From the sequence record MF327009: DNA of 64,000 nucleotides; one strand, written 5' to 3'. Shown one piece after another: positions 29,491-60,157 of the stretch. The notes beneath the pieces are model-generated. The model did no database searches and was not told the origin of the DNA. It saw only the letters and a list, made by a program, of their open reading frames with translations. The position numbers and the translations under genes were made by a program. This stretch comes from Shigella phage Sf25. Every line of letters starts with the position of its first letter. The stretch's first letter is position 1.

Positions 29491-29544
29491 TCCTCATGTT
29501 ATGTCAGTAAGATTACTATAACACAACACGAGGGACTTGTAAAC
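29491..29544 (-). promoter_or_regulatory. early-promoter cassette upstream of alc; 54 bp identical to 13401-13454
   Basis: Same -35/-10/RBS cassette as at 13401-13454. Confidence 0.5.
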
Positions 29545-35271: not shown

Positions 35272-35392
35272 TGCCAGCATCTTTACCGACGTAATTTCCC
35301 CAAAATGTACCACGGTGAATATTAACATCAAAGTCGGATTTATATTTATTCACTACCCGGCATAGACGGCCCGCGCGGTTGTAGGTGTTCAT
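35075..35392 (-). CDS. hypothetical protein (nrdA.1-like); C-terminus altered by the 178-bp duplication
   Basis: ORF track; without the second copy the frame would end ...NRLFKDDFQVEDLCN overlapping the nrdA ATG. Confidence 0.45.
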
Positions 35393-38440: not shown

Positions 38441-38887
38441 CTACTTTTTGAAAGTTTTTCGCAAAAGTTCAATGATTTCATCTACATTGTTTTCGTCAAC
38501 AATGCAGTGAATTTTTGTTACGCCAGAAACCTTGTCTATGACTTCATCTACATTGTTTTCGTCAACAATGCAGTGAATTTTTGTTACGCCAGAAACCTTG
38601 TCTTTGACTTCATCTTCTTCAGAAGTCGGTTCTTTATACTCACGAAAACAATGAAATTCATCTTCGCAAATTTCTAAAAGTCTATCTTTGAGGTAAAAAT
38701 GCTTTCCATTTGCGCATTCAATGTGTTTTACTGCTTTATATCCATTAGCGACGGAAACTTCTTTAACTTCAAACCATCCGCCATTATCTCGAATAGCTTT
38801 AACGATTGATGAATTAGAACGTGGGCTATAATTAATAAATGTATCAATAAGTCTTGGAACAAGTTCATACTTTTTGCCAATATACAT
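38441..38887 (-). CDS. hypothetical protein (148 aa) with an internal 22-aa tandem repeat
   Basis: ORF track; ...VKDKVSGVTKIHCIVDENNVDE VIDKVSGVTKIHCIVDENNVDE.... Confidence 0.45.
   Translation of the reverse strand: MYIGKKYELVPRLIDTFINYSPRSNSSIVKAIRDNGGWFEVKEVSVANGYKAVKHIECANGKHFYLKDRLLEICEDEFHCFREYKEPTSEEDEVKDKVSGVTKIHCIVDENNVDEVIDKVSGVTKIHCIVDENNVDEIIELLRKTFKK
38472..38615. repeat. near-exact tandem repeat, 66-bp unit, about 2.2 copies, 2 mismatches
   Basis: Position i matches i+66 across 38472-38549 except at 38476 and 38538. Confidence 0.8.
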
Positions 38888-40212: not shown

Positions 40213-40310
40213 TTTTATTTCCTTTTTAATTTAATTAACAGTTGGTGCTATGACGATGTATGACCTCATAGCTGGTCAGTGAGATAATTATAATCTATTT
40301 ATAATAAGCA
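40213..40310 (-). promoter_or_regulatory. gene 32 5' leader: AU-rich translational operator (UUAAAUUAAAAAGGAAAUAAAA-AUG) and a TATAAATA late-promoter match at 40296-40303
   Basis: Sequence read directly; gp32 autoregulation through such an operator is established for T4. Confidence 0.5.
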
Positions 40311-40311
40311 A

Positions 40312-42404: not shown

Positions 42405-45400
42405 ATGGCCGAGATTAAAAGAAAGTTCAGAGCAGAAGATGGTCTGGACGCAGGTGGTGATAAAATAATCAACGTAGCTTTAGCTGATCGTACCGTAGGA
42501 ACTGACGGTGTTAACGTTGATTACTTAATTCAAGAAAACACAGTTCAACAATATGATCCAACTCGTGGATATTTAAAAGATTTTGTAATCATTTATGATA
42601 ACCGCTTTTGGGCTGCTATAAATGATATTCCAAAACCGGCAGGAGCTTTTAATAGCGGACGCTGGAGAGCATTACGTACCGATGCTAACTGGATTACAGT
42701 CTCATCTGGTTCATATCAATTAAAATCTGGTGAAGCTATTTCGGTTAACACTGCAGCTGGTAATGATATTACATTTACTTTACCATCTACTCCAATTGAC
42801 GGTGATACTATCGTTCTCCAAGATATTGGAGGAAAACCTGGAGTTAACCAAGTTTTAATTGTAGCTCCAGTACAAAGTATTGTAAACTTTAGAGGTGAAC
42901 AGGTACGTTCAGTACTAATGACTCATCCAAAGTCACAGCTAGTTTTAATTTTTAGTAATCGTCTGTGGCAAATGTATGTTGCTGATTATAGTAGAGAAGC
43001 TATAGTTGTAACACCAGCAAGTCTCTATCAGGCGCAATCTAATGATTTTATCGTACGTAGATTTACTTCTGCTGCACCAATTAATGTTAAACTTCCAAGA
43101 TTTGCTAATCATGGCGATATTATTAATTTCGTTGATTTAGATAAACTGAATCCACTTTATCATACAATTGTTACTACATACGATGAAACGACTTCAGTAC
43201 AAGAAGTTGGAACTCATTCCATTGAAGGCCGTACATCGATTGACGGTTTCTTGATGTTTGATGATAATGAGAAATTGTGGAGATTGTTTGACGGGGATAG
43301 TAAAGCACGTTTACGTATCATAACGACTAATTCAAATATTCGTCCAAACGAAGAAGTTATGGTATTTGGTGCAAATAACGGAACAACTCAAACGATTGAG
43401 CTTCAGCTTCCAACTAATATTTCTGTTGGTGATACTGTTAAAATTTCCATGAATTACATGAGAAAAGGACAAACAGTTAAAATCAAAGCTGCAGGTGAAG
43501 ATAAAATTGCTTCTTCAGTTCAATTGCTGCAATTCCCAAAACGTTCAGAATATCCGCCTGAAGCTGAGTGGGTTACAGTTCAAGAATTAGTTTTTAACGG
43601 TGAAACTAATTATGTTCCAGTTTTACAGCTTGCTTATATAGAAGATTCTGATGGAAAATACTGGGTTGTACAGCAAAATGTTCCAACCGTAGAAAGAGTA
43701 GATTCTTTAAATGATTCTACTAGAGCAAGATTAGGCGTGATTGCTTTAGCTACACAAGCGCAAGCTAATGTCGATTTAGAAAATTCTCCGCAAAAAGAAT
43801 TAGCAATTACTCCAGAAACATTAGCTAACCGTACTGCTACAGAAACTCGTAGAGGTATCGCAAGAATAGCAACTACTGCTCAAGTGAATCAGAACACCAC
43901 ATTCTCTTTTGCTGATGATATTATCATTACTCCTAAAAAGCTGAATGAAAGAACTGCTACAGAAACTCGTAGAGGTGTTGCTGAAATTGCTACGCAACAG
44001 GAAACTAATGCAGGTACTGATGATACTACAATCATCACTCCTAAAAAGCTTCAAGCTCGACAAGGTTCTGAATCATTATCAGGTATTGTAACCTTTGTAT
44101 CTACCGCGGGAGCTACTCCAGCTTCTAGTCGTGAATTAAATGGTACAAACGTTTATAATAAAAACACTAATAATTTAGTTGTTTCGCCTAAAGCTCTAGA
44201 TCAGTATAAAGCTACTCCAACGCAGCAAGGTGCAGTAATTTTAGCAGTTGAAAGTGAAGTAATTGCTGGACAGAGCCAAGAAGGATGGGCAAATGCGGTT
44301 GTAACGCCAGAAACGTTACATAAAAAGACATCAACTGATGGAAGAATTGGATTAATTGAAATTGCTACACAGTCTGAAGTTAATACAGGAACTGATTATA
44401 CTCGTGCAGTCACTCCTAAAACTTTAAATGATCGTAAAGCAACTGAAAGTTTAAGTGGTATAGCAGAAATAGCAACACAAGTTGAATTCGACGCAGGCGT
44501 CGACGATACTCGTATCTCTACACCATTAAAAATTAAAACCAGATTTAATAGTACTGATCGTACTTCTGTTGTTGCTCTATCTGGATTAGTTGAATCAGGA
44601 ACTCTCTGGGACCATTATACCCTTAATATTCTTGAAGCAAATGAGACACAGCGTGGTACACTTCGTGTGGCTACACAAGTTGAAGCTGCTGCAGGAACAT
44701 TAGATAATGTTTTAATAACTCCTAAAAAGCTTTTAGGTACTAAATCTACCGAATCGCAGGAAGGTGTTATTAAAGTTGCAACACAAACTGAAACTGTTGC
44801 TGGTACATCATCTAATACTGCTGTATCTCCAAAGAATTTAAAATGGATCGTGCAGAGCGAACCTACTTGGGCAGCTACAACGGCTATAAGAGGATTTGTT
44901 AAAACTTCTTCTGGTTCTATTACTTTCGTTGGTAATGATACTGTTGGTTCAACACAACCTTTAGAATCATATGAAAAAAATAGCTATGCTATATCTCCAT
45001 ATGAATTAAACAGAGTATTAGCTAACTATTTACCATTAAAAGCCAAAGCAGTTGATAGTAATTTACTCGATGGTCTAGATTCACTCCAGTTCATTCGTAG
45101 GGACATCGCCCAGACAGTTAATGGATCACTAACCTTAACGCAACAAACGAATCTGAGTGCCCCTCTTGTATCATCTAGTACTGCTACGTTTGGTGGATCA
45201 GTTTCTGCTAATAGTACATTGACTATTTCTAACACAGGAACAGCTACTCGACTGATTTTTGAAAAAGGACCTCAGACTGGAACAAATCCGGCTCAAACGA
45301 TGACTATCAGAGTTTGGGGAAATGAGTTTGGAGGTGGTTCTGATACATCACGTTCAACTGTATTTGAAGTTGGTGATGAAACGTCTAATCACTTCTATTC

Positions 45401-46274
45401 GCAACGTAATAAAGCTGGTAATATTGTTTTCAGTATTAATGGTACTGTAATGCCAATAAATGTGAATGCTTCGGGTTCATTGAATGCTAATGGTGTTGCA
45501 ACATTTGGTAGTTCTGTTACTGCTAATGGTGAATTCATCAGTAAATCAGCAAATGCTTTTAGAGCAATAAATGGTGATTACGGATTCTTCATTCGTAATG
45601 ATGGTGGAAACACCTATTTCATGTTAACTGCTTCTGGTGATCAAACTGGTGGATTTAATGGATTAAGACCTTTAGCAATAAACAATACATCAGGTCAAGT
45701 TACAATCGGTGAAGGATTAATTGCAGCAAAAGGTGTTACGATAAATTCTGGTGGTTTGACTGTTAACTCGAGAATTCGTTCTCAAGGTTCTAAAACTGCT
45801 GATTTATATACTCGTGCTCCTACTGCTGATACAGTCGGATTCTGGTCAATTGACATTAATGATTCAGCTACATACAACCAATTCCCTGGTTATTTTAAAA
45901 TGGTTGAAAAAACTAATGAAGTGACTGGGCTTCCATACTTAGAACGTGGTGAAGAAGTTAAATCTCCTGGTACTTTGACTCAGTTTGGTAATACTCTTGA
46001 TTCACTTTACCAAGATTGGATTACTTATCCAATAACTCCTGAAGCACGTACAACCCGTTGGACACGTACTTGGCAGAAGAATAAAAATTCATGGTCAAGT
46101 TTTGTCCAAGTATTTGATGGTGGAAACCCTCCTCAACCTTCTGATATTGGTGCTTTACCTTCTGATAATGCAATAATCGGAAACTTGACAATAAGAGATT
46201 TCTTAAGGATTGGTAACGTCCGCATTATTCCAGATCCTGTGACTAAATCAGTTAAATTCGAGTGGATTGAATAA
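42405..46274 (+). CDS. 34: long tail fibre proximal subunit gp34
   Basis: 1289-aa ORF; recurring ITPKKL...TETRRG...IATQ motifs; length matches T4 gp34. Confidence 0.95.
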   Translation: MAEIKRKFRAEDGLDAGGDKIINVALADRTVGTDGVNVDYLIQENTVQQYDPTRGYLKDFVIIYDNRFWAAINDIPKPAGAFNSGRWRALRTDANWITVSSGSYQLKSGEAISVNTAAGNDITFTLPSTPIDGDTIVLQDIGGKPGVNQVLIVAPVQSIVNFRGEQVRSVLMTHPKSQLVLIFSNRLWQMYVADYSREAIVVTPASLYQAQSNDFIVRRFTSAAPINVKLPRFANHGDIINFVDLDKLNPLYHTIVTTYDETTSVQEVGTHSIEGRTSIDGFLMFDDNEKLWRLFDGDSKARLRIITTNSNIRPNEEVMVFGANNGTTQTIELQLPTNISVGDTVKISMNYMRKGQTVKIKAAGEDKIASSVQLLQFPKRSEYPPEAEWVTVQELVFNGETNYVPVLQLAYIEDSDGKYWVVQQNVPTVERVDSLNDSTRARLGVIALATQAQANVDLENSPQKELAITPETLANRTATETRRGIARIATTAQVNQNTTFSFADDIIITPKKLNERTATETRRGVAEIATQQETNAGTDDTTIITPKKLQARQGSESLSGIVTFVSTAGATPASSRELNGTNVYNKNTNNLVVSPKALDQYKATPTQQGAVILAVESEVIAGQSQEGWANAVVTPETLHKKTSTDGRIGLIEIATQSEVNTGTDYTRAVTPKTLNDRKATESLSGIAEIATQVEFDAGVDDTRISTPLKIKTRFNSTDRTSVVALSGLVESGTLWDHYTLNILEANETQRGTLRVATQVEAAAGTLDNVLITPKKLLGTKSTESQEGVIKVATQTETVAGTSSNTAVSPKNLKWIVQSEPTWAATTAIRGFVKTSSGSITFVGNDTVGSTQPLESYEKNSYAISPYELNRVLANYLPLKAKAVDSNLLDGLDSLQFIRRDIAQTVNGSLTLTQQTNLSAPLVSSSTATFGGSVSANSTLTISNTGTATRLIFEKGPQTGTNPAQTMTIRVWGNEFGGGSDTSRSTVFEVGDETSNHFYSQRNKAGNIVFSINGTVMPINVNASGSLNANGVATFGSSVTANGEFISKSANAFRAINGDYGFFIRNDGGNTYFMLTASGDQTGGFNGLRPLAINNTSGQVTIGEGLIAAKGVTINSGGLTVNSRIRSQGSKTADLYTRAPTADTVGFWSIDINDSATYNQFPGYFKMVEKTNEVTGLPYLERGEEVKSPGTLTQFGNTLDSLYQDWITYPITPEARTTRWTRTWQKNKNSWSSFVQVFDGGNPPQPSDIGALPSDNAIIGNLTIRDFLRIGNVRIIPDPVTKSVKFEWIE

Positions 46275-46282
46275 GAGGTATT

Positions 46283-47398
46283 ATGGAAAAATTTATGGCA
46301 GAGTTTGGACAAGGATATGTCCAAACTCCATTTTTATCGGAAAGCAATTCAGTAAGATATAAAATAAGTATAGCGGGTTCTTGCCCGCTTTCTACTGCAG
46401 GGCCTTATGTTAAATTTCAAGATAATCCTATTGGAAGTCAAACATTTAATGCAGGTCTTCATTTGAGAGTTTTTGATCCTACATCAGGGGCGTTAGTCGA
46501 TAGTAAATCATATGCATTTTCATCATCTAACGATACGACATCAGCTGCTTTTATTGATTTTATGAATTCAATTTCATCTAATAGAATAGTTGCTATATTA
46601 ACAAGTGGAAAAGTTAATTTCCCTCCTGAAGTAGTTTCTTGGTTAAGAACAGCAGGAACATCTGCTTTTCCATCTGATGCTATATTATCTAGATTTGATG
46701 TTTCATACGCAGCTTTTTACACTTCAGTAAAACGGGCAATCGCGTTAGAACACGTTAAATTAAGTAATAGAAAAAGCACAGATGATTATCAAACTATACT
46801 AGATGTAGTATTTGATAGCATAGAAGATGTTGGAGCAACAGGTTTTCCAAAAAGAACTTATGAAAGCGTTGAACAATTTATGTCAGCAGTTGGTGGAACA
46901 AATAATGAAATAGCGCGTTTACCTACTTCAGCCGCAATAAGTAAACTTTCTGACTACAATTTAATTCCTGGCGATGTTCTTTATCTTAAAGCACAGTTAT
47001 ATGCTGACGCAGATTTATTAGCATTAGGAACTACTAATATTTCAATTCGTTTTTATAACTCATCAAACGGATATATTTCTTCAACCCAAGCTGAATTTAC
47101 AGGACAGGCTGGATCTTGGGAATTAAAAGAGGATTATGTGGTTGTTCCAGAAAATGCAGTTGGATTTACGATATATGCACAGAGAACTGCTCAAGCAGGA
47201 CAAGGCGGCATGCGAAATTTAAGCTTTTCTGAAGTATCAAGAAATGGTGGAATTTCAAAACCCGCCGAGTTTGGTGTTAATGGTATTAGAGTTAATTATG
47301 TCTGTGAATCTGCTTCACCTCCTGATATAATGGTACTTCCAACACAATCGTCTACAAATACTGGAAAAGTTTTTGGACAAGAATTTAGAGAAGTTTAA
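46283..47398 (+). CDS. 35: long tail fibre hinge connector gp35
   Basis: 371-aa ORF; position and length as in T4. Confidence 0.9.
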   Translation: MEKFMAEFGQGYVQTPFLSESNSVRYKISIAGSCPLSTAGPYVKFQDNPIGSQTFNAGLHLRVFDPTSGALVDSKSYAFSSSNDTTSAAFIDFMNSISSNRIVAILTSGKVNFPPEVVSWLRTAGTSAFPSDAILSRFDVSYAAFYTSVKRAIALEHVKLSNRKSTDDYQTILDVVFDSIEDVGATGFPKRTYESVEQFMSAVGGTNNEIARLPTSAAISKLSDYNLIPGDVLYLKAQLYADADLLALGTTNISIRFYNSSNGYISSTQAEFTGQAGSWELKEDYVVVPENAVGFTIYAQRTAQAGQGGMRNLSFSEVSRNGGISKPAEFGVNGIRVNYVCESASPPDIMVLPTQSSTNTGKVFGQEFREV

Positions 47399-47403
47399 AC
47401 TGA

Positions 47404-47430
47404 GGGAGCCTTCGGGTTCCCTTTTTCTTT
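47404..47430 (+). terminator. rho-independent terminator after gene 35 (GGGAGCC-TTCG-GGTTCCC plus T-run)
   Basis: Stem-loop followed by tttttcttt. Confidence 0.65.
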
Positions 47431-47437
47431 ATAAATA
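47430..47437 (+). promoter_or_regulatory. late promoter TATAAATA upstream of gene 36
   Basis: Exact TATAAATA about 24 bp upstream of the gene 36 ATG. Confidence 0.65.
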
Positions 47438-47460
47438 CTATTAAAATAAAGGGGCATACA

Positions 47461-48126
47461 ATGGCTGATTTAAAAGTAGGTTCAACAACTGGAGGCTCTG
47501 TCATTTGGCATCAAGGAAATTTTCCATTGAATCCAGCCGGTGACGATGTACTCTATAAATCATTTAAAATATATACAGAATATAATAAACCACAAGCAGC
47601 TGATAACGATTTCGTTTCTAAAGCTAATGGTGGTACTTACGCTTCAAAGGTAACATTTAACGGTGGCGTGCAAATACCATATGCTATAAACAATACAAAC
47701 CAAAGCGGTATTTTTCCTGGTAATGGTGATGCTGCTACTTTTGCTACAGCAAATATTGATATTGTTTCATGGTATGGCATTGGTTTTAAATCATCACAAG
47801 GATCTGCAGGTAGAACTGTAGTAATTAATGCACGTAATGGCGATATTAGCACAAAAGGCGTTGTATCTGCTTCAGGACAAGTAAGAAGCGATATGACTGC
47901 TCCAGTTGCAGCAAATGATCTCACAAGAAAAGATTATGTTGATGGAGCAATAAATATTGTTACGGATAACGCAAATTCACGTGTATTGCGTAGAGGCGAT
48001 ACTATGACTGGAAATTTAACAGCTCCAAACTTTTTCTCACAGAATCCAGCGTCTCAACCTTCACATGTTCCACGATTTGATCAAATTGTTATTAAGGATT
48101 CTGTTCAAGATTTCGGCTATTATTAA
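47461..48126 (+). CDS. 36: long tail fibre distal connector gp36
   Basis: 221-aa ORF; length matches T4 gp36. Confidence 0.9.
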   Translation: MADLKVGSTTGGSVIWHQGNFPLNPAGDDVLYKSFKIYTEYNKPQAADNDFVSKANGGTYASKVTFNGGVQIPYAINNTNQSGIFPGNGDAATFATANIDIVSWYGIGFKSSQGSAGRTVVINARNGDISTKGVVSASGQVRSDMTAPVAANDLTRKDYVDGAINIVTDNANSRVLRRGDTMTGNLTAPNFFSQNPASQPSHVPRFDQIVIKDSVQDFGYY

Positions 48127-48134
48127 GAGGACTT

Positions 48135-51100
48135 ATGGCTACTTTAAAACAAATACAATTTAAAAGAAGCAAAACTGCAGGTCAACGTCCTGCTGCTTCA
48201 GTATTAGCCGAAGGTGAATTGGCTATAAACTTAAAAGACCGTACTCTTTTTACTAAAGATGACTCGGGAAATATTATTGATTTAAGCATTTCTGCCGGTG
48301 GTAACATTAGTGGAAATATCACTCAAAATGGTGATTATTTACAAAACGGCACGTATAATCTTAATGGAAATCAGTTTGTTTATGCAGGAAAGTATATTGA
48401 ATTCTTGCCAAAAACTGCTGGAAATGGTGCTTGGGCAAATCAGCACACAAATAAAGCTCCAATTTTCACCGATTTGAGTTCAACTACTTCAACTTCTGAA
48501 TATCATCCGCTAATTAAACAACGTTATAAAGATGGAACGTTTTCATTAGGGACTTTAGTTTCTGAAGGCTCAATGAAGATACACTATATCGATGAAACTG
48601 GCACTTCAAAATATTGGACTTTCCGACGTGATGGTGGTTTTGTTGTTGATAGTGGTAGTTTAACTGTTACTGCTGGAAACATATCTGCTTCAGGCAATAT
48701 TAATTCGGCATCAGGGGTTGTTTCAGCTCCTCAAATTAATACAAAAACCATTGTTTTAGATACAAAAGCATTTGGACAATATGATTCGCAGTCATTAGTT
48801 CAGTATGTTTATCCTGGCACTGGCGAAACAAACGGTATAAACTATCTTCGTAAAGTTCGCGCAAAATCAGGTGGTACAATTTATCATGAAATAGCTTCAG
48901 CTCAAAGTGGAAAAAGCGATGAAATTTCGTGGTGGACTGGAAATACAGCCGTTAATAAACAAATGGGTCTTCGTAATGATGGTGCAATGGTATTACGTCG
49001 TTCACTTGCTATTGGCACAATTACTACAGATGAAAACGTAAATAACTATGGATCTGCTGGAGCAATGGGAGAAAAATACATTGTTCTTGGAGATGCGTCA
49101 ACTGGACTAGCTTATAAAAAGACAGGAGTTTATGACTTAGTTGGTAGTGGTTTATCTGTTGCTTCTATCACTCCCGACAGTTTTCGTAGTACCCGTAAAG
49201 CAATTTTTGGACGTTCTGAAGACCAAGGCGGTACATGGCTTCTTCCTGGTCAAAACGCTGCTCTTCTTTCAGTTCGTACAGATATTGATCAAAATAATAA
49301 CGGTGATGGTCAAACTCATATTGGATATAATAGTAACAGCAAGTTTTATCATTATTTTAGAGGCAGAGGCCGAATGGCTGTTGGAATGGCTGAAGGTCTT
49401 ATTGTTGAGCCTGGAATTTTAGATATTAAAACTGGTTCAAATACTGTTTCTATTAGAGCTGATGGCGGAATTTCATCTACTCAGCGTCTTTCATTGCAGA
49501 ATGGTATATTTTTATCTTCTGACGGAAATAACAACGGTATATCGTTTAAAGCTTCTAGCAGTATAGATGGAACTAAAACTCTTAATTGGGATGCTGGTAC
49601 TCGTGCAGGTCAAAACAAAAATACAGTAATTTTAAAAGCATGGGGAAATTCATTTAATACAAGTGGTGGAACTGATAGACATACTGTATTTGAAGTTTCT
49701 GATTCGCAAGGATACTACTTTTATGCTCAACGTACTACCCCTGCATCCGGTCAAACAGTAGGTCCTATTAATTTTAAATTTAATGGTACTGTAGAAACCG
49801 GTCATATCAATGGATTAGGTAATATTACTTTATCTGGGGCAGTTATAGCAGATTCTGCTAATATTAAAGGACCGCTAAAAATATCTAATGCTAATACAGC
49901 TGATGCTTTTAGAATATGGAACGCTGAATATGGAGCCATTTTCCGTCGTTCAGAAACATCATTGCATATTATTCCTACACTTAAAGATGCAGGGGAAAAT
50001 GGTGGAATAAGTAATCTTCGCCCATTAAGTATTGATCTTTCAAACGGATTTGTGCAAATGCATCATTCTCTTTCTGTGGGGAATACAGTAAGAACGAATG
50101 GATTGTTTGCTGTGGATACTTCAGCTGCTCTTGTTGCAATTAACAGATGTTCCTATTGTGAAACAAAGATACGTTCAAGGGAATAGCACCTATTCATTAG
50201 GTACTTTAATTAATGGTGGTGATTTCCGTTTACATTACCATGAAGGCGGTGACAGTTCTTCAACAGGTGCAGTTATAAAAGATATTTCCTGGGAATTTAA
50301 ACGTAATGGTGATTTCTATTCGCCAGGTCGTTTACGTACAGGAAATATCTATATTGGAACTGATGGTAATATCACGGGTGGTTCTGGTAACTTTGCTAAC
50401 TTGAATACAACTTTAAACCGTAAAGTTAATTCTGGTTTTATTACTTATGGAGCAACTGCAGGTTGGTACAAGTTTGCAACAGTAACAATGCCTCAAGCTA
50501 CATCAACCGTTTCAATTACAGTCACTGGCGGAAATGGATTTAATTCTGGATCATTTAATCAGTGTGCAATTTCTGAAATTGTTCTTCGTACAGGAAACAA
50601 TAATCCTCTGGTGATACATATGACATTTATGTTAATATGGGAACATATGCTAATCAGTTGATATTTAACTATAGTTCTGTTGATAATGCCACAGTTCAAA
50701 TTATTGGCGCATTCAGTTCAGCTCAAAATCCTGTTGATGCATTGCCAGAAACATATGTTAAAGGTCAGGTAGCAGATGTATTGACTAACTTAGTTGATTC
50801 TGGAAAAACGAAGCGTTTTGTTGCTGAATCTGAAATAGCTATTAATAATCAAACTGGATTACGTATTACGAGTAATGGTGATAAATCTGGTTCAAATTCA
50901 GTATTATTCAGAAATGATGGATCAGCGTTTTATATTCTTTTAACAGATAAAAACGCAGCAGATGGAAATACGACTGCCACAGAAGGAGATTGGAATGGTA
51001 AACGTCCTTTCCAAATTAATATGACTTCTGGTGAAGTAACATTCGGAAATAATATTAATATTTCTGGAAACGGAAGCATTACTTGGACAAAAGCCGGAGC

Positions 51101-51770
51101 AAACCCTAGAAATATGAGAATATTTCATGCAGGTGATGCTTCTCGTGGTAACCGTATTGAAATCGCAGATGATACTAATTATATTGCTTACTTTGAAAAA
51201 ACTCCAGGTGGAGCTAACCGCTTTGTAGTTAATGGTGCTACTGTAGCTGGTGTTAATCAAATGAATTCATTTGGTATTAACATCAATAACGCGCTTGGTG
51301 GAAATAGTATAGCATTTGGTGATAATGACACGGGTATTAAGCAAAACGGCGATGGATTATTAGACATTTATGCGAATGGTGTGCAAACGTTCCGTTTCCA
51401 AAACGGTGATTTGTACTCATATAAAAATATAAATGCCCCAAACGTTTATATTCGTTCTGATATTCGCTTAAAATCTAATTTCAAACCTATCGAAAATGCA
51501 CTTGATAAAGTTGAAAAACTCAATGGTGTCATTTATGATAAAGCTGAATATATCGGTGGAGAGGCAATTGAAACTGAAGCGGGTATTGTGGCTCAAACGT
51601 TACAAGACGTTTTACCAGAAGCCGTCCGTGAAACAGAAGACAGCAAGGGTAATAAAATACTCACTGTTTCTTCTCAAGCCCAGATTGCTCTTCTGGTTGA
51701 AGCTGTGAAAACGCTTTCTTCTCGTGTAAAAGAACTTGAATCTAAACTTCTTGAATCTAAACTTATGTAA
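48135..51770 (+). CDS. 37: long tail fibre distal subunit gp37, T2-type with C-terminal intramolecular chaperone domain; reading frame broken twice (about 50140-50160 and 50604-50615)
   Basis: Three consecutive ORFs in three frames (48135-50186, 50098-50661, 50637-51770), all gp37-like: [37 protein letters not shown]...; [34 protein letters not shown]; C-terminal SDIRLKSNF...VKELESKL. Confidence 0.8.
51456..51767 (+). other. peptidase S74-type intramolecular chaperone / self-cleavage domain at the gp37 C-terminus
   Basis: Motif RSDIRLK followed by a coiled-coil-like tail; domain assignment by recollection of the family. Confidence 0.55.
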
Positions 51771-51772
51771 AA

Positions 51773-51792
51773 GAGGGCTTCGGCCCTCTAAG
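51773..51792 (+). terminator. hairpin after gene 37 (AGAGGGC-TTCG-GCCCTCT)
   Basis: Perfect stem-loop followed by aaggattttt. Confidence 0.45.
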
Positions 51793-51800
51793 GATTTTTA

Positions 51801-52498
51801 ATGGCAATTGTAGGTGTTCCTGGCTGGATTGGTGAATCTGCCGTGAATGAAACAGGACAGCGTTGGATGGATGCTGCAATGAGAGCAGTCCGTGTTTCAG
51901 TTCCCGGTTGGATGAGCTCAATGGCCGGACAATCTAAAGAAGTATATTATAGCATTGGTGCTAGTAATTCTTATAATAAAGATACATTAATAAACTGAAT
52001 GCATACGTGACACTTAATATCAATTCAGGCGTGCATGTTTGGGGCCGTGGCGGGAATGGCGGAAATAACTCTGCCGGTGGAGCAGGAGGAACTGCAATAA
52101 ATAATGGAATTGGAACTAGATTGCGTATTAACAACAATGGTGTTATCGCAGGAGGCGGTGGCGGCGGTGGAGGCGGATATTATTCTCCTTTTTCACAAAT
52201 GAAATTGACTTTTGGCGGTGGCGGCGGTCGTCCATTTGGTGCTGCTGGCGGGTCTGCTAATATGGAACAGGGCGCTACTGCTGGTACTATTTCTGCACCT
52301 GGTAAAGGGTCTGTCAATGGTATCTATAATGGCGGGAATGGCGGTGATGCTGGTGCCGCAGGTGGTAAATGTAATATTCGTGGGCAAGGATCAGAATATA
52401 ACGGCGGTGCGGCCGGTAAAGCTGTTACTGGTAATGCTCCAACTTGGACTAAGGTTGGTACAATATATGGCCCTCTGATATTCTATTTGGTGTTCTAG
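51801..52498 (+). CDS. 38: gp38 receptor-recognising adhesin (T2-type, glycine-rich islands); split by a frameshift near 51980-51996
   Basis: ORF 51801-51998 (MAIVGVPGWIGESAVNETGQRWM...) and ORF 52007-52498 in another frame with GGGGGGGGG islands; the second frame is open back to 51980. Confidence 0.75.
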
Positions 52499-53100
52499 AT
52501 CGCTTGTTCAAAGATAACGCTACCGGGAAAGTTCTTGCTTCCCGGGTAGCTGTCGTAATTCTTTTATTTATGATGGCGATTGTTTGGTATAGGGGAGATA
52601 GTTTCTTTGAGTACTATAAGCAATCAAAGTATGAAACATACAGTGAAATTATTGAAAAGGAAAGAAATGCACGCTTTGAATCTGTCGCCCTGGAACAACT
52701 CCAGATAGTTCATATATCATCTGAGGCAGACTTTAGTGCGGTGTATTCTTTCCGCCCTAAAAACTTAAACTATTTTGTTGATATTATAGCATACGAAGGA
52801 AGATTACCTTCAACAATAACTGAAAAATCACTTGGAGGATATCCTGTTGATAAAACTATGGATGAATATATAGTTCATTTAAATGGACGTCATTATTATT
52901 CTGACTCAAAATTTGCTTTTTTACCAACTAAAAAGCCTACTCCCGAAATAAACTACATGTACAGTTGTCCATATTTTAATTTGGATAATATCTATGCTGG
53001 AACGATAACCATGTACTGGTATAGAAATGATCATATAAGTAATGACCGCCTTGAATCAATATGTGCTCAGGCGGCCAGAATATTAGGAAGGGCTAAATAA
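52467..53100 (+). CDS. t: holin T; the ATG at 52467 is out of frame with the body (in-frame body 52453-53100, first canonical start TTG 52504)
   Basis: Body (WPS)DILFGVLDRLFKDNATGKVLASRVAVVILLFMMAIVWYRGDSFFEYY matches recalled T4 T residues 11-218; ATG GCC is followed by a stop in its own frame. Confidence 0.75.
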
Positions 53101-53373
53101 TTATTTGTTTGTATACATCTCTAGATATCGATATACACCCTCAAAACCCTCGTTGAATTCGTCGATGAGGGTTTTCTTATCTTCTTGAGTTAATTCAGAA
53201 ACAATTTTACGGAATGAATTCTGATTTAATTTTCTACCTTCATGCGTTACTCCAATCTCATTCAAAAATGCAATAAAATTAGCACGATTTTCAACAATAT
53301 CTTCTCTGGAAAATTTAATCAAAATAGACGCAACAGTAATAATTTCACGAACTGTATCAATGTTTTTATTCAT
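53101..53373 (-). CDS. asiA: AsiA anti-sigma70 factor
   Basis: 90-aa ORF MNKNIDTVREIITVASILIKFSREDIVENRANFIAFLNEIGVTHEG; matches recalled T4 AsiA. Confidence 0.9.
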   Translation of the reverse strand: MNKNIDTVREIITVASILIKFSREDIVENRANFIAFLNEIGVTHEGRKLNQNSFRKIVSELTQEDKKTLIDEFNEGFEGVYRYLEMYTNK

Positions 53374-53385
53374 TAACTATACCAC

Positions 53386-53538
53386 TCAATTAGTTGACTT
53401 TGTTATAATATCATCAGACGCTTGATTTGTAAACTGGTCTGTGTTATTTTCTTCAAAAATTTTTTCTACGAATTCCTTGAACGACTCGCGTTCCTGAGCT
53501 ACATTATGCTCGATTACCTTTTCAAGATTATGACTCAT
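53386..53538 (-). CDS. small hypothetical protein (50 aa)
   Basis: Manual translation MSHNLEKVIEHNVAQERESFKEF; start overlaps the arn stop (ATGA). Confidence 0.35.
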   Translation of the reverse strand: MSHNLEKVIEHNVAQERESFKEFVEKIFEENNTDQFTNQASDDIITKSTN

Positions 53539-53813
53539 TCGAAATAATCTTCAATTTCGTAATCATGGACGTAAATCATTATAGTTTTTAATACATCATC
53601 AATACTTTTTCCTGGAGCTGGAATTACGTAAAAATATCCTGCTTTTGAGAGGTCTTTATAAGTTCCAATCAAGAAATCATTATTCTCAAGATGTAGTTCT
53701 TCAACTAATTCATTAACAATTGAGTGGTATAAATTTGGTAGAAACTTATATAGCTTTTCTAGAATATCAATTTTGATTGTATATTGAACCACGGACTGAG
53801 AATCAATAATCAT
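53535..53813 (-). CDS. arn: Arn anti-restriction protein
   Basis: 92-aa ORF; length and position between asiA and motA as in T4. Confidence 0.75.
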   Translation of the reverse strand: MIIDSQSVVQYTIKIDILEKLYKFLPNLYHSIVNELVEELHLENNDFLIGTYKDLSKAGYFYVIPAPGKSIDDVLKTIMIYVHDYEIEDYFE

Positions 53814-53896
53814 AGACCTTCCCCTTATGTTTCTGTTTGCGATTAGATTCTTTAAACGCTTTCTTCTTATCTTTATGAACAGAAGCTTTATTAAAA

Positions 53897-54115
53897 TTAT
53901 GTTTTGCGACTAAATTGTTCATAGTGCTGAATTACCTCTCTTAAACATTTGCATGTGAATGAAAACTTTTTAGCTACACCACATTCAAATATATGTTCTC
54001 TTAAATCGCGTGTATCGGTATATCCCATCTCAACAATAAAGTGCCTTATCAGATTTTTATCTTTATCATTCAGAGAGTTAAAATAATCAGATTTTGAATT
54101 AATTTCCCTGGCCAA
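53897..54115 (-). CDS. hypothetical protein (72 aa)
   Basis: ORF track. Confidence 0.4.
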   Translation of the reverse strand: MAREINSKSDYFNSLNDKDKNLIRHFIVEMGYTDTRDLREHIFECGVAKKFSFTCKCLREVIQHYEQFSRKT

Positions 54116-54395
54116 ATTGAATCACCTTCAGTTGACGTTTTAATTCTTTTATCATTTCTTCGTTCATCGCAATATAAAGATCGCGTAAAGCAGGTTTTAG
54201 CATGTCATTTATTATAGAACTAAATGGACACACATAATCTTTTCCTACAAGCTTTTTGGTGAATTCCATATCACAGAACTTAAATCCCGGCTCATTGGCA
54301 TAAATTCCCCAATTAGTTGACATCATTTTATTAGCATATTCCAGTGCCTGGATTTGATTCATAATTCCATCAATTTGAAACTTTTTAATATTCAT
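54099..54395 (-). CDS. hypothetical protein (98 aa)
   Basis: ORF track. Confidence 0.45.
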   Translation of the reverse strand: MNIKKFQIDGIMNQIQALEYANKMMSTNWGIYANEPGFKFCDMEFTKKLVGKDYVCPFSSIINDMLKPALRDLYIAMNEEMIKELKRQLKVIQFGQGN

Positions 54396-54856
54396 TAGTA
54401 AAGGTCCTCAGAGTAAAGTTCTTTTTCACTACCACCACGTTCAATACGTACTTGTCCAGCGTAAGTTGCAATAATCATTGCTTCTTCACGTGTCCAATAA
54501 TTACTATATTGGTCAATAAACCCTTGGTCATCATCACAAACTTGTTGAGTAACTAATTGAGGTTTAACTACATCTAAAACTTCTGCCATATCTTTAGAAT
54601 AATGACGAGCACCTGGAATAATAAGAGTTCGTCCATCTTTTAATTTAAAACGGTTGGCTGCACAGACAATTCGTCGTTGATACTTTTGGTTTTCATCCCA
54701 ATATGCAGGCTGCCAACAGATTTCAGGAACTTCTTTCAGAATATCTTCTTCTGTGCATTTATAACCATGCGCTTTAAATTTTTCAACAAGACTTTCTGGA
54801 GTTTCACGAGATAAAGGAACATTCAGCATTTTTAAACGATTAATAAATGGGTTCAT
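54395..54856 (-). CDS. hypothetical protein (153 aa)
   Basis: ORF track. Confidence 0.45.
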
Positions 54857-55182
54857 TTAAACCATCCTTTAATACGTTGCCACAAAGTTTTCTGCTGAGC
54901 TTTGTTAACACCAATTGAACGAATAACCGGTTGAGATTCCTGGAATTCTTTATAATCGGCAAGGTAAATTTCGTAAGCTGCATCCGTAAATGAACTTATC
55001 GCTGCCATAAAATTATTGCGAATACCTACTGGAGCATCTTTACTTTCACGAATAATCATGTATTTACCAGTCTTAATCTTTACGATAGTTCCAAGATAAG
55101 CTCCGTGGTACCAAATATCCCAACCCTCTTGAGTAGGTTCTGCGCAACGACGAAGTTCATTAACAATTTCTAACTTGTTCAT
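54853..55182 (-). CDS. hypothetical protein (109 aa)
   Basis: ORF track. Confidence 0.45.
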
Positions 55183-55192
55183 TATTTATTCC

Positions 55193-55828
55193 TCACAGTT
55201 CAGATGCTACAGTGATTACAGCTTCAATGTTTTCTGCCGAGCGTTTAATGTCAAGATACACATTACCGTTTTTAGCGATTTTACATGACATTCCGATGTC
55301 AGTAAATTTCTGAATATGATGTTCCATCATTTTGTATCCAAAAATTCGCATGTTTCCATTGTTGTTAATTTCAAAATTGCGAATTCCGTGAGTGCGTTTT
55401 TCTAAAATAGCGAGATAGTTACTGCGATAAGTTTCAACCTTTTTAAGAACAAATCCATTTTCATCTAAAAGTTTTAACATGAGGTCTTTATCTTCTTCCA
55501 TATCGGAAGTAATCTCGCGAGCTTTACGAGTTGCTCGTTTTTTCAGTAGTTCCGGAGCATTTTCTTGTGCGTATAAAGTTGCTGCATTTGAAATAATATC
55601 CTGAGCTTCACCAGTAATGATTAATCCATCACCAGATTTCTCCACCAGGCCTTTTTTAATCAATACCCCAATATTACTATTAACTACTGCGTTACCTAAA
55701 TCTGGATGCACCTCACGAACTTCTGCGGCTGTAATGAAATCTTTCTTAGCAATAGTAATTAAAATCGCAGCTGTTTTTTCATTCAGAACATCGTTAGAAG
55801 CTTTGATGATGTAAGTTACTTTAGACAT
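55193..55828 (-). CDS. motA: MotA middle-transcription activator
   Basis: 211-aa ORF MSKVTYIIKASNDVLNEKTAAILITIAKKDFITAAEVREVHPDLGNAVV; matches recalled T4 MotA. Confidence 0.9.
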   Translation of the reverse strand: MSKVTYIIKASNDVLNEKTAAILITIAKKDFITAAEVREVHPDLGNAVVNSNIGVLIKKGLVEKSGDGLIITGEAQDIISNAATLYAQENAPELLKKRATRKAREITSDMEEDKDLMLKLLDENGFVLKKVETYRSNYLAILEKRTHGIRNFEINNNGNMRIFGYKMMEHHIQKFTDIGMSCKIAKNGNVYLDIKRSAENIEAVITVASEL

Positions 55829-55869
55829 TTTCTAATCTCCGTAATTCTGTATCAGTAGTTGATAGTTGT

Positions 55870-55899
55870 ATAGTACCACAGTATGCTTTGGTTGTAAAC
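55870..55899 (-). promoter_or_regulatory. early promoter for motA (-35 GTTTAC, -10 TACTAT)
   Basis: Minus-strand GGTTTACaaccaaagcatactgtggTACTAT with AT-rich upstream element; motA is an immediate-early gene in T4. Confidence 0.55.
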
Positions 55900-55930
55900 C
55901 GTTTTGTGAAAAAATTTTTGAAATAAAAAA

Positions 55931-55950
55931 GGGAGAGCCGAGGCTCTCCC
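55931..55950 (-). terminator. rho-independent terminator (GGGAGAGCC-GA-GGCTCTCCC plus U-run)
   Basis: Strong stem-loop; minus-strand T-run follows. Confidence 0.65.
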
Positions 55951-55955
55951 TAAAA

Positions 55956-56105
55956 TTACTGCTCAAACACGATAACTATCATGATAACACGTTGAATTCC
56001 GAACGCAAGAAGACCTCCTGCTACGGCTGGAACAACACCTAAACCAGCCAGTAAAATGCTACCGGATACTAATGCAGCGCTTGTAATACCTATGAATGGA
56101 CTCAT
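55956..56105 (-). CDS. small hydrophobic membrane protein (49 aa)
   Basis: Manual translation MSPFIGITSAALVSGSILLAGLGVVPAVAGGLLAFGIQRVIMIVIVFEQ; overlaps the gene 52 stop. Confidence 0.4.
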   Translation of the reverse strand: MSPFIGITSAALVSGSILLAGLGVVPAVAGGLLAFGIQRVIMIVIVFEQ

Positions 56106-57430
56106 TTGATTTCCTCTAAATCTTTGGTGTATTCTGTAACTACATCAGTAGTTTTCCAATATTCGTTTTCTTCTTTTTTAGCTTTAGCTTCTTCAGCAAG
56201 TTTCTTTGCTTCATCAGAAGTCATATGAAAAATATTCATACCAACTAGTTTATCAACATAAGAAGAATACATATCAATTTTAGAAAGTTCTTCTGTCAGT
56301 TCTTTACGAGTTTTACCTTGTACAACAATTTCACCTGAAATTACTTTCTTAATGAAATGTGCCTTGGCAAAGGCTAAACGAAATGCTGATTCAGTTTCTT
56401 TGATTTTGTTATCAATTCGTTTTTGGACATAAGTTTTACGAATTTCAACAAAGTCTTTAATTAAATCGACTACGTTATCGTAAACTTGTAGTTTTCCTTT
56501 CTCATTAATAACCGTAATATTCTGAGAACGACGCTCAATCAACCCGAAGTCTTTCATAATTTTTGCATGGCGTTCTTCTTCATTATCGCTCAAAGAATAT
56601 TCTTTACGGAATTTAACTTTAAAGCCAAAACCATGCTCACCACAAGCATCATCCCATGTAATGAAGCCTTTATCTTCAAGTGGGTCTAAGATTTTACTCA
56701 CATAAGTTTCACGATCATACTTATACGGAATCTCAGTGATATGCATTTGAGTTCGTGAAGTAAACTTATATGTTCCACGAATTTCATATTGCCCATCAAT
56801 TTCAACGACTTCACCACGAAATTCTGGGAATTCTACCTTCGGTTTAGTTACTTTCTTTCCTTGAAGAGCTTGTAGTACAGCTTTCTTGACAGAAGAAACG
56901 CTATGAGGAAGAATGTAAGTTGCATAACCAGTTGCAATACCGGAAACGCCATTAAGAAGAACAGTAGGAATAATAGGCAAATAGAAAGCAGGCGGAATGT
57001 GTTCTTTATCTTGATGTACCGGAGCATATTCAGTATCTTTATATACGTTATAGAAATTTTTACTTACACGAGCAAAAATATAACGACTTGCTGCTGCTTT
57101 TTGGACGGTACGAGAACCAAAGTTTCCTTGACCATCTAACAGAGGAAAGTTATTATTCCAAGTATTAGCCATCAAAGCACCTGCGTCTTGTGCAGAGTTT
57201 TCACCATGATGATATCCAAGGTCTGCTACACCACCTGCAATAGAAGCGAGTTTGTGAAACTTATCTTTATTTCCTCGTGCCAAATCAAGAGCTCGAGAAA
57301 TAACAAATCGTTGAACTGGCTTAAATCCATCAATCATATTTGGGATAGCACGATTTTCAACCGTGTACATAGCATAAGCCAATGCTTCATTATCAATGAT
57401 ACTTTTTAAATCGCGATTATTCAGTTGCAT
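56102..57430 (-). CDS. 52: DNA topoisomerase II medium subunit gp52 (GyrA-like)
   Basis: 442-aa ORF MQLNNRDLKSIIDNEALAYAMYTVENRAIPNMIDGFKPVQRFV; matches recalled T4 gp52. Confidence 0.9.
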   Translation of the reverse strand: MQLNNRDLKSIIDNEALAYAMYTVENRAIPNMIDGFKPVQRFVISRALDLARGNKDKFHKLASIAGGVADLGYHHGENSAQDAGALMANTWNNNFPLLDGQGNFGSRTVQKAAASRYIFARVSKNFYNVYKDTEYAPVHQDKEHIPPAFYLPIIPTVLLNGVSGIATGYATYILPHSVSSVKKAVLQALQGKKVTKPKVEFPEFRGEVVEIDGQYEIRGTYKFTSRTQMHITEIPYKYDRETYVSKILDPLEDKGFITWDDACGEHGFGFKVKFRKEYSLSDNEEERHAKIMKDFGLIERRSQNITVINEKGKLQVYDNVVDLIKDFVEIRKTYVQKRIDNKIKETESAFRLAFAKAHFIKKVISGEIVVQGKTRKELTEELSKIDMYSSYVDKLVGMNIFHMTSDEAKKLAEEAKAKKEENEYWKTTDVVTEYTKDLEEIK

Positions 57431-57434
57431 AAAT

Positions 57435-57575
57435 TTACCATACTAGTGAATGTAGTGCCATAATAACATCAGAAATGAAAAGCACGACTTGAATTAATCC
57501 GAACATTACTCCATAATATAGTGCTACCAATAAAGTAGCAAGGGCTAATGAATAGCCCAAGATTTTCTTAATCAT
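57435..57575 (-). CDS. ac: small membrane protein (46 aa), ac-like
   Basis: Manual translation MIKKILGYSLALATLLVALYYGVMFGLIQVVLF; position as T4 ac; T4 Ac recalled as 51 aa. Confidence 0.4.
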   Translation of the reverse strand: MIKKILGYSLALATLLVALYYGVMFGLIQVVLFISDVIMALHSLVW

Positions 57576-57620
57576 TAGTAGATAACAACACAAATGTTAA
57601 ATATGCACACATACCCTGGG

Positions 57621-57680
57621 CTAAAGCTTGAAATTATTACGATAGAACTGCATCACATGTTCGTTATGGAAATTACTCAT
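57621..57680 (-). CDS. stp: Stp-like peptide (19 aa; T4 Stp is 26 aa)
   Basis: Manual translation [19 protein letters not shown]; first 16 residues match recalled T4 Stp. Confidence 0.4.
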   Translation of the reverse strand: MSNFHNEHVMQFYRNNFKL

Positions 57681-58138
57681 TAATATGCCTGCAAAACAAA
57701 TTTAAAGTTATCAGCCAACATACGGTTCATTTCTTCAAGTGTTTGATACTCAGAATGATGATTACGAGTAAACGCTAAAGCTAACTGTCCTTTTCCAAAT
57801 CCCGTCGTCAGAGGTTTCATCTTAGAAGCAGGCAGATAAAATACTGTGTATACCATATTGTTATTTGCAATAGTACGTGCAAGCTGAGACCGACGTTGAC
57901 GAATATGACTTAGAACTGCACTGAATCCTTGCTTAGAACGCTGATTACCTACATAAAATCGTGCAGACACACATGGATTACTAAATGGACGACCATCTAA
58001 TTTACTTACTAAAAAGTAAAATCCAGGTTTAGATAAAATATCTTTATGCGGAGTTCCCAAAAACCACTCACCACCCTTGATTGTACCAATAACAGTTGCG
58101 CCTGCATTATTCAGATCAGTAACAGTCATATATTTCAT
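57680..58138 (-). CDS. ndd: Ndd nucleoid disruption protein
   Basis: 152 aa from [28 protein letters not shown]; position as in T4. Confidence 0.75.
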
Positions 58139-58198
58139 ATTAATTTCCTCTAAATTATTTTCTACTCCAAGGCCGCATGAATACACGCGGCCATTAAA

Positions 58199-58414
58199 TT
58201 AATCGTCGCAGTCGACGCTCAATTCCCAAAACTCTTCTACGGTATAAGTTTCAGTATCATTTTCAATACAAAAACGTTCATTACTGTTATTTGCTAAAGT
58301 AGCATTAACTGTCGGTTTCTCGCTAGTGCTCTTAAGAGGTGAAATGCGAATTAACTGATCACCGTTATCTAAACAGAAAATTTCACCAACTTTTACATCT
58401 TTAAAACTTTTCAT
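58199..58414 (-). CDS. hypothetical protein (71 aa), ndd.x
   Basis: ORF track. Confidence 0.4.
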   Translation of the reverse strand: MKSFKDVKVGEIFCLDNGDQLIRISPLKSTSEKPTVNATLANNSNERFCIENDTETYTVEEFWELSVDCDD

Positions 58415-58529
58415 AATTCACCTCAAGGAGTATAAAATCCAAATGCAGTTGTTGACCATCCCATCCAATATGGAAAATTTGCACCAATGTAAAACATAAG
58501 AATATAAAACCAAATGTTTAGTAAATTCA

Positions 58530-58718
58530 TTATTTTACACCATTCCAAATTGTTTCAACTACAGATTTTAAGCCATTTTGATGAATGTCCATTCCGACTA
58601 CCGCCATCAAATAGATTCCAACTACGTTTAACATATCAATCATTAAAACGATTGGGAATATACTCAAAACTACTAGTATTATAACTACATTCCATATAGC
58701 TTTAATAATCTTTTTCAT
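58530..58718 (-). CDS. small membrane protein (about 62 aa from MKKIIKAIWNVVIIL)
   Basis: ORF track 58530-58853, trimmed to the internal Met preceded by GGAGG and an early promoter at 58746-58776. Confidence 0.4.
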   Translation of the reverse strand: MKKIIKAIWNVVIILVVLSIFPIVLMIDMLNVVGIYLMAVVGMDIHQNGLKSVVETIWNGVK

Positions 58719-58961
58719 TTTCTGTTCCTCCGTAGTTGATAGGGTAATAATACCACAGAGGAACAGTCTTGTAAACAACTTTTTTAAAAATATTCGTAAT
58801 AAATGTGAATACCAACTACTACTGCTGAAACTTGCACAACCCACCACGCACAAGCAATAAGCACAGAATTCAAAATTTTCATAATAACCTCATCACAAAA
58901 GTAAATGTTAAACAAATTAATGGAATACTAATTAACCAAACGAAACACCACCATAATGAAC

Positions 58962-59225
58962 TCATAGTTCAATCTCAGCGATTTCCAAGTGTTTTTGTTT
59001 TATTGCCTTTTTAACACAATCATGGACTAAATATGACCATGAATCATTATATTCTCCATTAACTAATCGTTGGAGATCTTCACGTGATGATAAGTAAGGT
59101 TGATCTGATTCCCATTTTGATAAAAATACTGCAGTAAAAATATCTCCTTCATCTGTAGTTGAAGTCGTAAATGCAATAAATTCACCGGTAATTTTATGTT
59201 TAGCGTAATAAAATTTAAATTTCAT
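58962..59225 (-). CDS. hypothetical protein (87 aa)
   Basis: ORF track; early promoter at 59253-59282 and GGAGG ribosome-binding site upstream. Confidence 0.45.
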   Translation of the reverse strand: MKFKFYYAKHKITGEFIAFTTSTTDEGDIFTAVFLSKWESDQPYLSSREDLQRLVNGEYNDSWSYLVHDCVKKAIKQKHLEIAEIEL

Positions 59226-59252
59226 TTTCCGCTCCTCCGTAGTTGATAGTTA

Positions 59253-59282
59253 TATAGTACCACGGTCCTTGTGGTATGTAAA
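59253..59282 (-). promoter_or_regulatory. early promoter (-35 GTTTAC, -10 TACTAT)
   Basis: Same cassette as at 39201-39230 and 55870-55899. Confidence 0.5.
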
Positions 59283-59299
59283 CCGTTTTGTGAAAATTT

Positions 59300-59857
59300 T
59301 TAAATGGAAAGATACCATCCGTTGTAGTTGCTTTTTCTTACAACCTTACGAAGGTCTTCTCTATCACCGATGAACTTCGGAGTGTACTGGATGACACCTG
59401 GGTGAATTTCTTTAGTGTTGAATATAATTATACAGTCAGCGACCTGATGATTCAGAATGGGCCCTAGATTTATTCCAGAACCATATGGATACTCTCCGCT
59501 GCATCCTGTTGTTACAGAAATCCAACGTGAGTCAGTTTGATGTGTCTTAACTTCTACACGAAGCCCGCAGTATCTTGGATGCGCCAATACATCCCATGCG
59601 TATGTATACGGGTCATTAACATCCTCTTGGCCTTTGTTAACATATCCGCTTAGCCAATCTGCTACAAAAAACTCTGCGTACACCGCGATACGACATCTTT
59701 CAATAACTTCTGCTTTATCCTGATTTGGATTTTGTTTTAAAGAGTATCTTGCTGTATCAGCAATTTTGACCTTCATTTCACTAGTCAAGTCATTGTTCGA
59801 TAGGGTAAATGTCGGAATCTGAAATAGTCTCTGTAAACCCGGATTCGTTTTCTGCAT
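59300..59857 (-). CDS. denB: endonuclease IV
   Basis: 185-aa ORF MQKTNPGLQRLFQIPTFTLSNNDL; length as T4 EndoIV. Confidence 0.8.
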   Translation of the reverse strand: MQKTNPGLQRLFQIPTFTLSNNDLTSEMKVKIADTARYSLKQNPNQDKAEVIERCRIAVYAEFFVADWLSGYVNKGQEDVNDPYTYAWDVLAHPRYCGLRVEVKTHQTDSRWISVTTGCSGEYPYGSGINLGPILNHQVADCIIIFNTKEIHPGVIQYTPKFIGDREDLRKVVRKSNYNGWYLSI

Positions 59858-60119
59858 TTAGACTTTCCTTTTTACCGCTGAGATAAGCGTTATACACTTT
59901 AAGAGTACCGTAGTAAATTCGGTCATTTTCATCTAAAGACACACGGTCAAGTTCATCAAGTTCCTTTTTATCCATGACTATAACATCATTGCAATAAAGA
60001 AACCCAAGTTTTTCGTGACCAAACTCAAATTTATTACAGTACACAATATTAGCGTGATGATTTCCGTGCAGTTTAATCTCTTTTATGTCGGAATCACCGA
60101 TATTCATACAATAAATCAT
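59790..60119 (-). CDS. hypothetical protein (109 aa); overlaps the denB start by 68 nt
   Basis: ORF track; the long overlap is atypical and makes the 3' boundary uncertain. Confidence 0.4.
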   Translation of the reverse strand: MIYCMNIGDSDIKEIKLHGNHHANIVYCNKFEFGHEKLGFLYCNDVIVMDKKELDELDRVSLDENDRIYYGTLKVYNAYLSGKKESLNAENESGFTETISDSDIYPIEQ

Positions 60120-60153: not shown

Positions 60154-60157
60154 TATT

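Follow-up and report, generated by a model that had tools for sequence, protein, structure and literature searches.

In the 64,000-nt stretch of Shigella phage Sf25 DNA analyzed here (sequence record MF327009; hereafter the window), the holin gene t has lost its start to a 72-nt deletion at the boundary with the tail-fiber adhesin gene 38. The window carries 15 private structural lesions, of which this deletion is one, and we infer, with a probability of roughly 0.85, that it is, like its 14 companions, a fault of the sequence with a technical rather than a biological cause. The arrangement at the locus is probably not a real feature, and it holds no new mechanism.

The boundary between gene 38 and the holin gene

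The window is that of a Tequatrovirus, T4-like with a T2-type gp38 adhesin, and its nearest phage relative in GenBank is Shigella phage Sf24 (98.5% identity over positions 45,000–60,000; 97.6% over 1–25,000). Direct reading of the letters around 52,440–52,520 (…ACTAAGGTTGGTACAATATATGGCCCTCTGATATTCTATTTGGTGTTCTAGATCGCTTGTTCAAAGAT…) agreed with the original prediction on two points: ATG GCC followed by CTC TGA occupies positions 52467–52478 and translates as MAL and a stop, and the frame that carries the body of the holin is open only from 52453, after a TAA at 52450–52452, and contains no ATG. This frame reads GWYNIWPSDILFGVLDRLFKDNAT, and its first canonical start is a TTG at 52504, which opens an ORF of 198 aa (52504–53100). 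The third frame extends gene 38 (…PTWTKVGTIYGPLIFYLVF, then a stop) to a TAG at 52496–52498.

Base-level alignment with Sf24 showed one 72-nt gap between window positions 52469 and 52470, with a single ambiguous G; the letters at the junction are ATATATGGCCCTCTG. The sequence on both sides of the gap matches Sf24, slur04, and others at 100% identity, and a 301-nt query across the site returned two pieces spanning 369–373 nt in every top match. Missing from the window are the last 13 nt of gene 38 (in the Sf24 annotation, part of codon G258, the codons for S-R-V, and TAA), the entire 32-nt intergenic region, including the Shine-Dalgarno sequence AAAGGAGGG and a late-promoter-like box, and the ATG of t with codons 1–9 (MAAPRISFS). 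In an alignment with T4 and two other relatives, the lost intergenic stretch holds TATAAATA in T4, which is the T4 late-promoter consensus, and AATAAATA in Sf24-type phages.

The single 72-nt deletion fuses gene 38, at codon G258, to codon 10 of t. Because the stop of gene 38 is deleted, the gene now reads nine codons into t (…TIYG-PLIFYLVF, then a stop), and its C-terminal SRV and stop are replaced by PLIFYLVF and a stop taken from t codons 10–18. Relative to the normal gene 38–t junction of T4, T2, Sf24, and about 500 Tequatrovirus records, the window retains the gene order 37–38–t–asiA and t codons 10–218, which are 100% identical to Sf24 (209 of 209 residues, P10 to K218), but it lacks the ribosome-binding site, the ATG, codons 1–9, and the late-promoter-like box.

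The alignment also overturned the view, put forward in the original prediction, that the ATG at 52467 is the surviving start of t and is followed after codon 2 by a frame-shifting gap of about 23 nt, or roughly eight codons. This ATG is an out-of-frame triplet within gene 38 codons …ACA ATA TAT GGx, and intact relatives have the same triplet (ATATATGGTTCAAG in Sf24); the real ATG of t lies inside the deletion, and 72 nt are absent. The GCC that follows it consists of the junction's ambiguous G and the first two bases of t codon 10 (CCC), and the likeness of ATG GCC to the beginning of a holin (MA…) is a coincidence of the junction.

The intact Sf24 stretch of 125 nt that covers the intergenic region, the ATG, and t codons 1–31 is uninterrupted in 496 of the 498 phage records that match it, T4 and T2 among them, and a 70-nt probe for the window's junction is interrupted by an insert of 71–72 nt in all 20 GenBank phage records that cover it. 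The junction probes used for GenBank phages and E. coli (70 nt and 141 nt) had no match in 5,426 complete E. coli genomes, an exact 26-mer of the junction had none in IMG/VR, GTDB genomes (one per species), or JGI metagenomes, and an index of 153 billion genes held no product equal to either of the junction-specific ORFs. A search with the window's ndd protein led to ten relatives in NCBI and ENA assemblies; each has a holin of 218 aa and aligns to the window from exactly 52470 onward. The original prediction named related phages with the same 5' arrangement as what would refute it, and no record shows that arrangement (0 of about 500). The 72-nt deletion is not an evolved arrangement. We also considered that it might mark the boundary between T2-type and T4-type gene 38 modules, a possibility that we rejected because both types share the intergenic region and the 5' end of t, and the deletion cuts both.

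Lesions private to the window and their origin

We compared the window with itself, with Sf24 and TadeuszReichstein, and with another 20 loci (from NCBI, ENA, and Logan) that each span a portion of it; the 20 loci were retrieved via ndd and a 175-aa accessory ORF and are about 95–97% identical. The relatives compared reach at best 97.6–98.5% identity and include no intact copy of the same strain. The 15 structural lesions private to the window consist of nine deletions of 70–173 nt and six tandem duplications of 155–252 nt (Table 1). Each lesion was compared with 4 to 12 relatives, and its breakpoint is the same against all of them. The deletion junctions show 0–1 nt of microhomology, about what random breakpoints give, and the copies of all six tandem duplications are 100% identical in the self-comparison, the duplications being absent from the relatives compared there. 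Junction probes for four other lesions were split in every listed GenBank record. The junction of the 103-nt deletion in gene 38 was split into two pieces in all 12 listed of 17 covering records, and that of the 173-nt deletion in gene 37 was split in all four covering records.

Table 1. Coordinates of the features at the gene 38–t junction and of the private lesions; a slash separates the two positions that flank a deletion
Feature	Position	Strand	Basis or remark
Tandem duplication, 202 nt per copy: 5' part of 24.3 and intergenic region before hoc	923–1326		
133-nt deletion: hoc codons 1–21, last 19 codons of inh	2394/2395	-	relatives, tblastn
Tandem duplication, 166 nt per copy: gene 30.9	22472–22802		
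~72-nt deletion: last 10 codons and stop of gene 31 (co-chaperonin)	23431/23432	-	relatives, tblastn
Tandem duplication, 155 nt per copy: pseT.2 (o-spanin)	28314–28621		
Tandem duplication, 252 nt per copy: inside nrdA	33651–34151		
Tandem duplication, 179 nt per copy: nrdA.1	34916–35272		
173-nt deletion: gp59 codons 1–52, 3' end and stop of gene 33	40809/40810	-	relatives, junction probe, tblastn
173-nt deletion, gene 37, frameshift	50146/50147	+	Sf24 alignment; tblastn
70-nt deletion, gene 37, second frameshift	50606/50607	+	Sf24 alignment; tblastn
Gene 38 5' fragment (T2-type tail-fiber adhesin), 65-aa ORF	51801–51998	+	Gp38_N PF21721, E=3e-19; ended by private 103-nt frameshifting deletion
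103-nt deletion, gene 38	51997/51998		Sf24 alignment; tblastn frame change
Gene 38 3' fragment, second frame	52007–52498	+	GP38 PF05268, E=3e-42
Mini-ORF ATG GCC CTC TGA, spurious	52467–52478	+	ATG native to gene 38, out of frame; same ATATATGG in Sf24
72-nt deletion junction, …ATATATG[G]/CCCTCTG…	52469–52471	+	1 nt microhomology; alignments with relatives, Sf24 annotation
Holin gene t remnant, codons 10–218 and TAA, without ribosome-binding site or ATG	52471–53100	+	Sf24 identity, PF11031
TTG, codon L21 of T; only canonical start left upstream of the transmembrane segment	52504–52506	+	5 nt past TAG 52496–52498
~136-nt deletion: 5' part of ac	57630/57633	-	tblastn; same breakpoint against 10 relatives
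~130-nt deletion: ndd.2a/ndd.4	58624/58625	-	relatives, tblastn
Tandem duplication, 251 nt per copy: inside rIIA	62631–63130		

Searches of the window with Sf24 proteins (tblastn) recovered gp37 in three frames and gp38 in two, T without residues 1–9, gp31 without its last 10 residues, gp59 without residues 1–52, and truncated hoc and inh. Genes clear of the lesions are mostly full length and 96–100% identical in the same searches, and the comparison with Sf24 showed no gaps from small indels over 8.9 kb and over 5.2 kb. Gene 37 is left as three ORFs (48135–50186, 50098–50661, and 50637–51770). An intact gp38 is encoded by one continuous ORF of about 260 aa, its N-terminal domain serving attachment and its glycine-rich C-terminal domain binding the receptor; the window has these domains in two frames, and the 3' fragment aligns to Sf24 gp38 residues 104–258 before it diverges. 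The intact essential late genes that would be expected of a viable Tequatrovirus (37, 38, 31, and 33) are not found. With gene 37 in three frames, gene 38 in two, and gp31 and gp33 truncated, such a phage could not form plaques, and the window thus does not faithfully represent the genome of a replicating phage.

Two further observations concern the tail-fiber genes. A 15-nt tandem duplication relative to Sf24 lies in frame at the C-terminus of gene 37 (51735–51749). The last 76 nt of gene 38 (52400–52475) match genes for a "receptor-recognizing protein" on 16 E. coli plasmids of about 106–120 kb at 87–91% identity, which suggests that gp38-type adhesin modules are common to phages and plasmid-borne elements, presumably phage-plasmids.

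Natural differences between the window and its relatives leave ORFs intact. Relative to Sf24, the homing endonuclease gene segG is absent (40275–40311); nrdB has no intron, and TadeuszReichstein has one; and there is an extra gene of 175 aa. This last, an intact ORF between the cd.2 and cd.3 homologues (25479–26006, minus strand) with no Pfam domain on record, is missing from Sf24 and TadeuszReichstein, and many other T4-like contigs encode an identical protein. Unlike the lesions, this ORF is a natural insertion of an accessory gene. We kept several candidates off the list of lesions. A 98-nt difference at about 5089, considered as a deletion in the window, is instead an insertion specific to Sf24, and a 29-nt difference at about 6817 is probably another; segG, the nrdB intron, and a recombination between the gp121 and gp122 paralogues are relative-specific differences. 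A 266-nt loss relative to Sf24 at 60155 is consistent with this recombination between paralogues. Small inversions were sought in divergent patches such as nrdB 31748–31837, and none were found there; this nrdB patch is an in-frame divergent allele relative to Sf24.

Other features of the window stand outside the lesions. Genes 30.1 and 30.2 (about 19455 and about 19800, minus strand) each show a frame change against the Sf24 annotation in tblastn, apparently from single-base differences. The frd.2 region (38469–38615) carries a near-tandem repeat with a 66-nt period that is extra relative to Sf24 and TadeuszReichstein; this repeat may be natural, since its copies are 96% identical and thus differ, unlike those of the six perfect duplications. 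Two distant intergenic regions, one upstream of alt.-3 (13401–13454) and the other between alc and rnlA (29491–29544), share an exact 54-nt repeat, which appears native because it produces no gap against Sf24.

Set among 14 other private lesions, the deletion at t is far more likely a fault at the level of the sequence than a lysis phenotype worth study. The comparisons show directly the lesions, their absence from the relatives, and the damage to reading frames. The lesions may have arisen in mis-assembly, in gap-closing, in amplification (as chimeras), or in a later alteration of the sequence. A counterpoint to a technical origin is that base-calling errors do not typically take the form of clean deletions of 70–173 nt or of perfect duplications; any one of the lesions, considered alone, might in principle also occur in an actual DNA molecule.

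T-even phages package products of illegitimate recombination, and mixed infection can complement defective genomes. Together with the cleanness of the lesions and flanks of otherwise high-quality sequence, this background favors a reading in which the deletion is real and belongs to a defective genome: for example, a non-viable variant or amplification chimera present beside wild type in a lysate or metagenome and caught as a single-molecule or minority assembly, its t null complemented in trans. We consider this unlikely. Natural decay would not leave 15 lesions in 64 kb without accompanying small frameshifts, and perfect short tandem duplications in the nrdA, rIIA, and spanin genes are seen in none of about 500 relatives. 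Spontaneous T4 deletions usually fall between short direct repeats. The deletions in the window resemble those of the rII type in being clean internal losses of tens to hundreds of bases, but their junctions lack such repeats, having only 0–1 nt of homology, and they stand beside perfect tandem duplications.

The holin remnant and its possible expression

By its sequence, the remnant is without doubt that of a T4-type holin, an ordinary member of its family: Phage_holin_T (PF11031) scores 380 bits against a cut-off of 22.2 (E=4.7e-114; profile positions 5–233 of 233), and, as judged from the identity to Sf24, the single transmembrane segment and the periplasmic, RI-binding C-terminal domain are kept. 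A complete ORF with start and ribosome-binding site is not present, and neither ATG nor GTG occurs between the upstream stop (52450–52452) and the transmembrane segment. The cytoplasmic N-terminal amphipathic helix, which ends at F22 and is reported to contact RIII, is not preserved, as residues 1–9 are gone and the product of the canonical start begins at residue 21. This helix is needed for hole formation (PMC12162936). Deletion of the first 22 residues of T abolishes lysis and membrane permeabilization, with propidium iodide entering 1.3% versus 67% of cells (Schwarzkopf et al. 2025, PMC12162936); the variants F22A and R34A show the same loss, and substitutions at D19 and L21 are likewise inactivating (PMC12162936).

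If the sequence is real, t as written is a null allele. To this extent the original prediction was borne out: the gene has lost its start and the part that encodes the cytoplasmic N-terminus, and as written it can give no functional holin. The cytoplasmic antiholin gene rIII, whose product is said to bind the N-terminus of T, is intact in the window (23099–23344, minus strand) and shares 100% identity with rIII of Sf24; the damage here is confined to its target. In the classical T4 t-null (amber) mutants, reportedly described by Josslin in 1970, infected cells are said to fail to lyse and to accumulate phage. A real deletion would resemble these mutants in leaving no functional holin and no timed lysis; it would differ in kind, as the T4 ambers are point nonsense mutations handled on suppressor hosts, whereas the window has a 72-nt deletion across a gene boundary, a changed gp38, and 14 other lesions.

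Termination followed by reinitiation at a nearby UUG or AUG is a known process in E. coli and its phages, and because TTG 52504 lies in frame only 5 nt past the new stop of gene 38, reinitiation is conceivable. In a viable deletion mutant, ribosomes would end at the TAG (52496–52498) and reinitiate at the TTG, giving a T protein of 198 aa without residues 1–20 that would retain its transmembrane and periplasmic domains, would not bind RIII, and would alter lysis timing and lysis inhibition. We regard such a mutant as very unlikely. Gene 38 is frameshifted 470 nt upstream, so that few ribosomes would reach the TAG; the TTG is preceded by a weak GGTG alone, 11 nt upstream; gene 37 in three frames would give no tail fibers, which makes the question of viability moot; and the arrangement occurs in no relative. 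The product would, moreover, have no amphipathic helix, and the 22-residue truncation, F22A, and changes at D19 and L21 are all inactive (PMC12162936). It would represent nearly the same truncation as the engineered one, itself unable to form holes (PMC12162936), with the difference that the latter was a plasmid-expressed mEGFP fusion and the predicted product of the window keeps F22 and has the initiator Met in place of L21. Fainter still is the prospect that a replicating phage carries the 72-nt deletion as a real change and that a reinitiated holin without residues 1–20, the RIII-binding helix, still supports lysis. If true, a natural T-even holin without this helix would contradict the published result for the 22-residue truncation.

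The chance of a programmed +1 frameshift of the prfB type is negligible, although its formal geometry fits: from ATG 52467, ribosomes would read Met-Ala-Leu and slip at CUC-UGA-U to give MAL-DILFGVLDRLFKDN… (MAL-DILFGVLDRLF…), keeping most of the amphipathic helix, and, as at prfB, a Leu codon is followed by UGA, the downstream frame (here the holin frame) is +1 to the start, and the next codon is Asp. The prfB site is CUU UGA C with an upstream Shine-Dalgarno sequence. The site in the window was made by a private deletion and has no Shine-Dalgarno-like or G-rich stimulator before it (the bases are ACAATATATGGCC), and by codon–anticodon rules its CUC tRNA would probably re-pair poorly, with a central mismatch on UCU, in contrast to the step from CUU to UUU in prfB. 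Its ATG is a chance triplet of gene 38 whose sole Shine-Dalgarno-like element is TAAGG, 12 nt upstream, and because the junction that makes the site is found in no other sequence (about 500 relatives and three large collections), the shift site is not conserved.

Consequences for reading the window

Read literally, the locus would invite annotation as a holin with a frameshift or an alternative start, and experiments on lysis timing might follow. A real deletion would amount to an ordinary loss-of-function allele, in a gene that has been studied in detail. Gene-level inference should wait until the whole window has been through quality control, as its tail-fiber, chaperonin, late-transcription, spanin, nrdA, and rII genes are broken, and any feature found at one of the 15 breakpoints should be read as a lesion of the same kind, and as unreliable.
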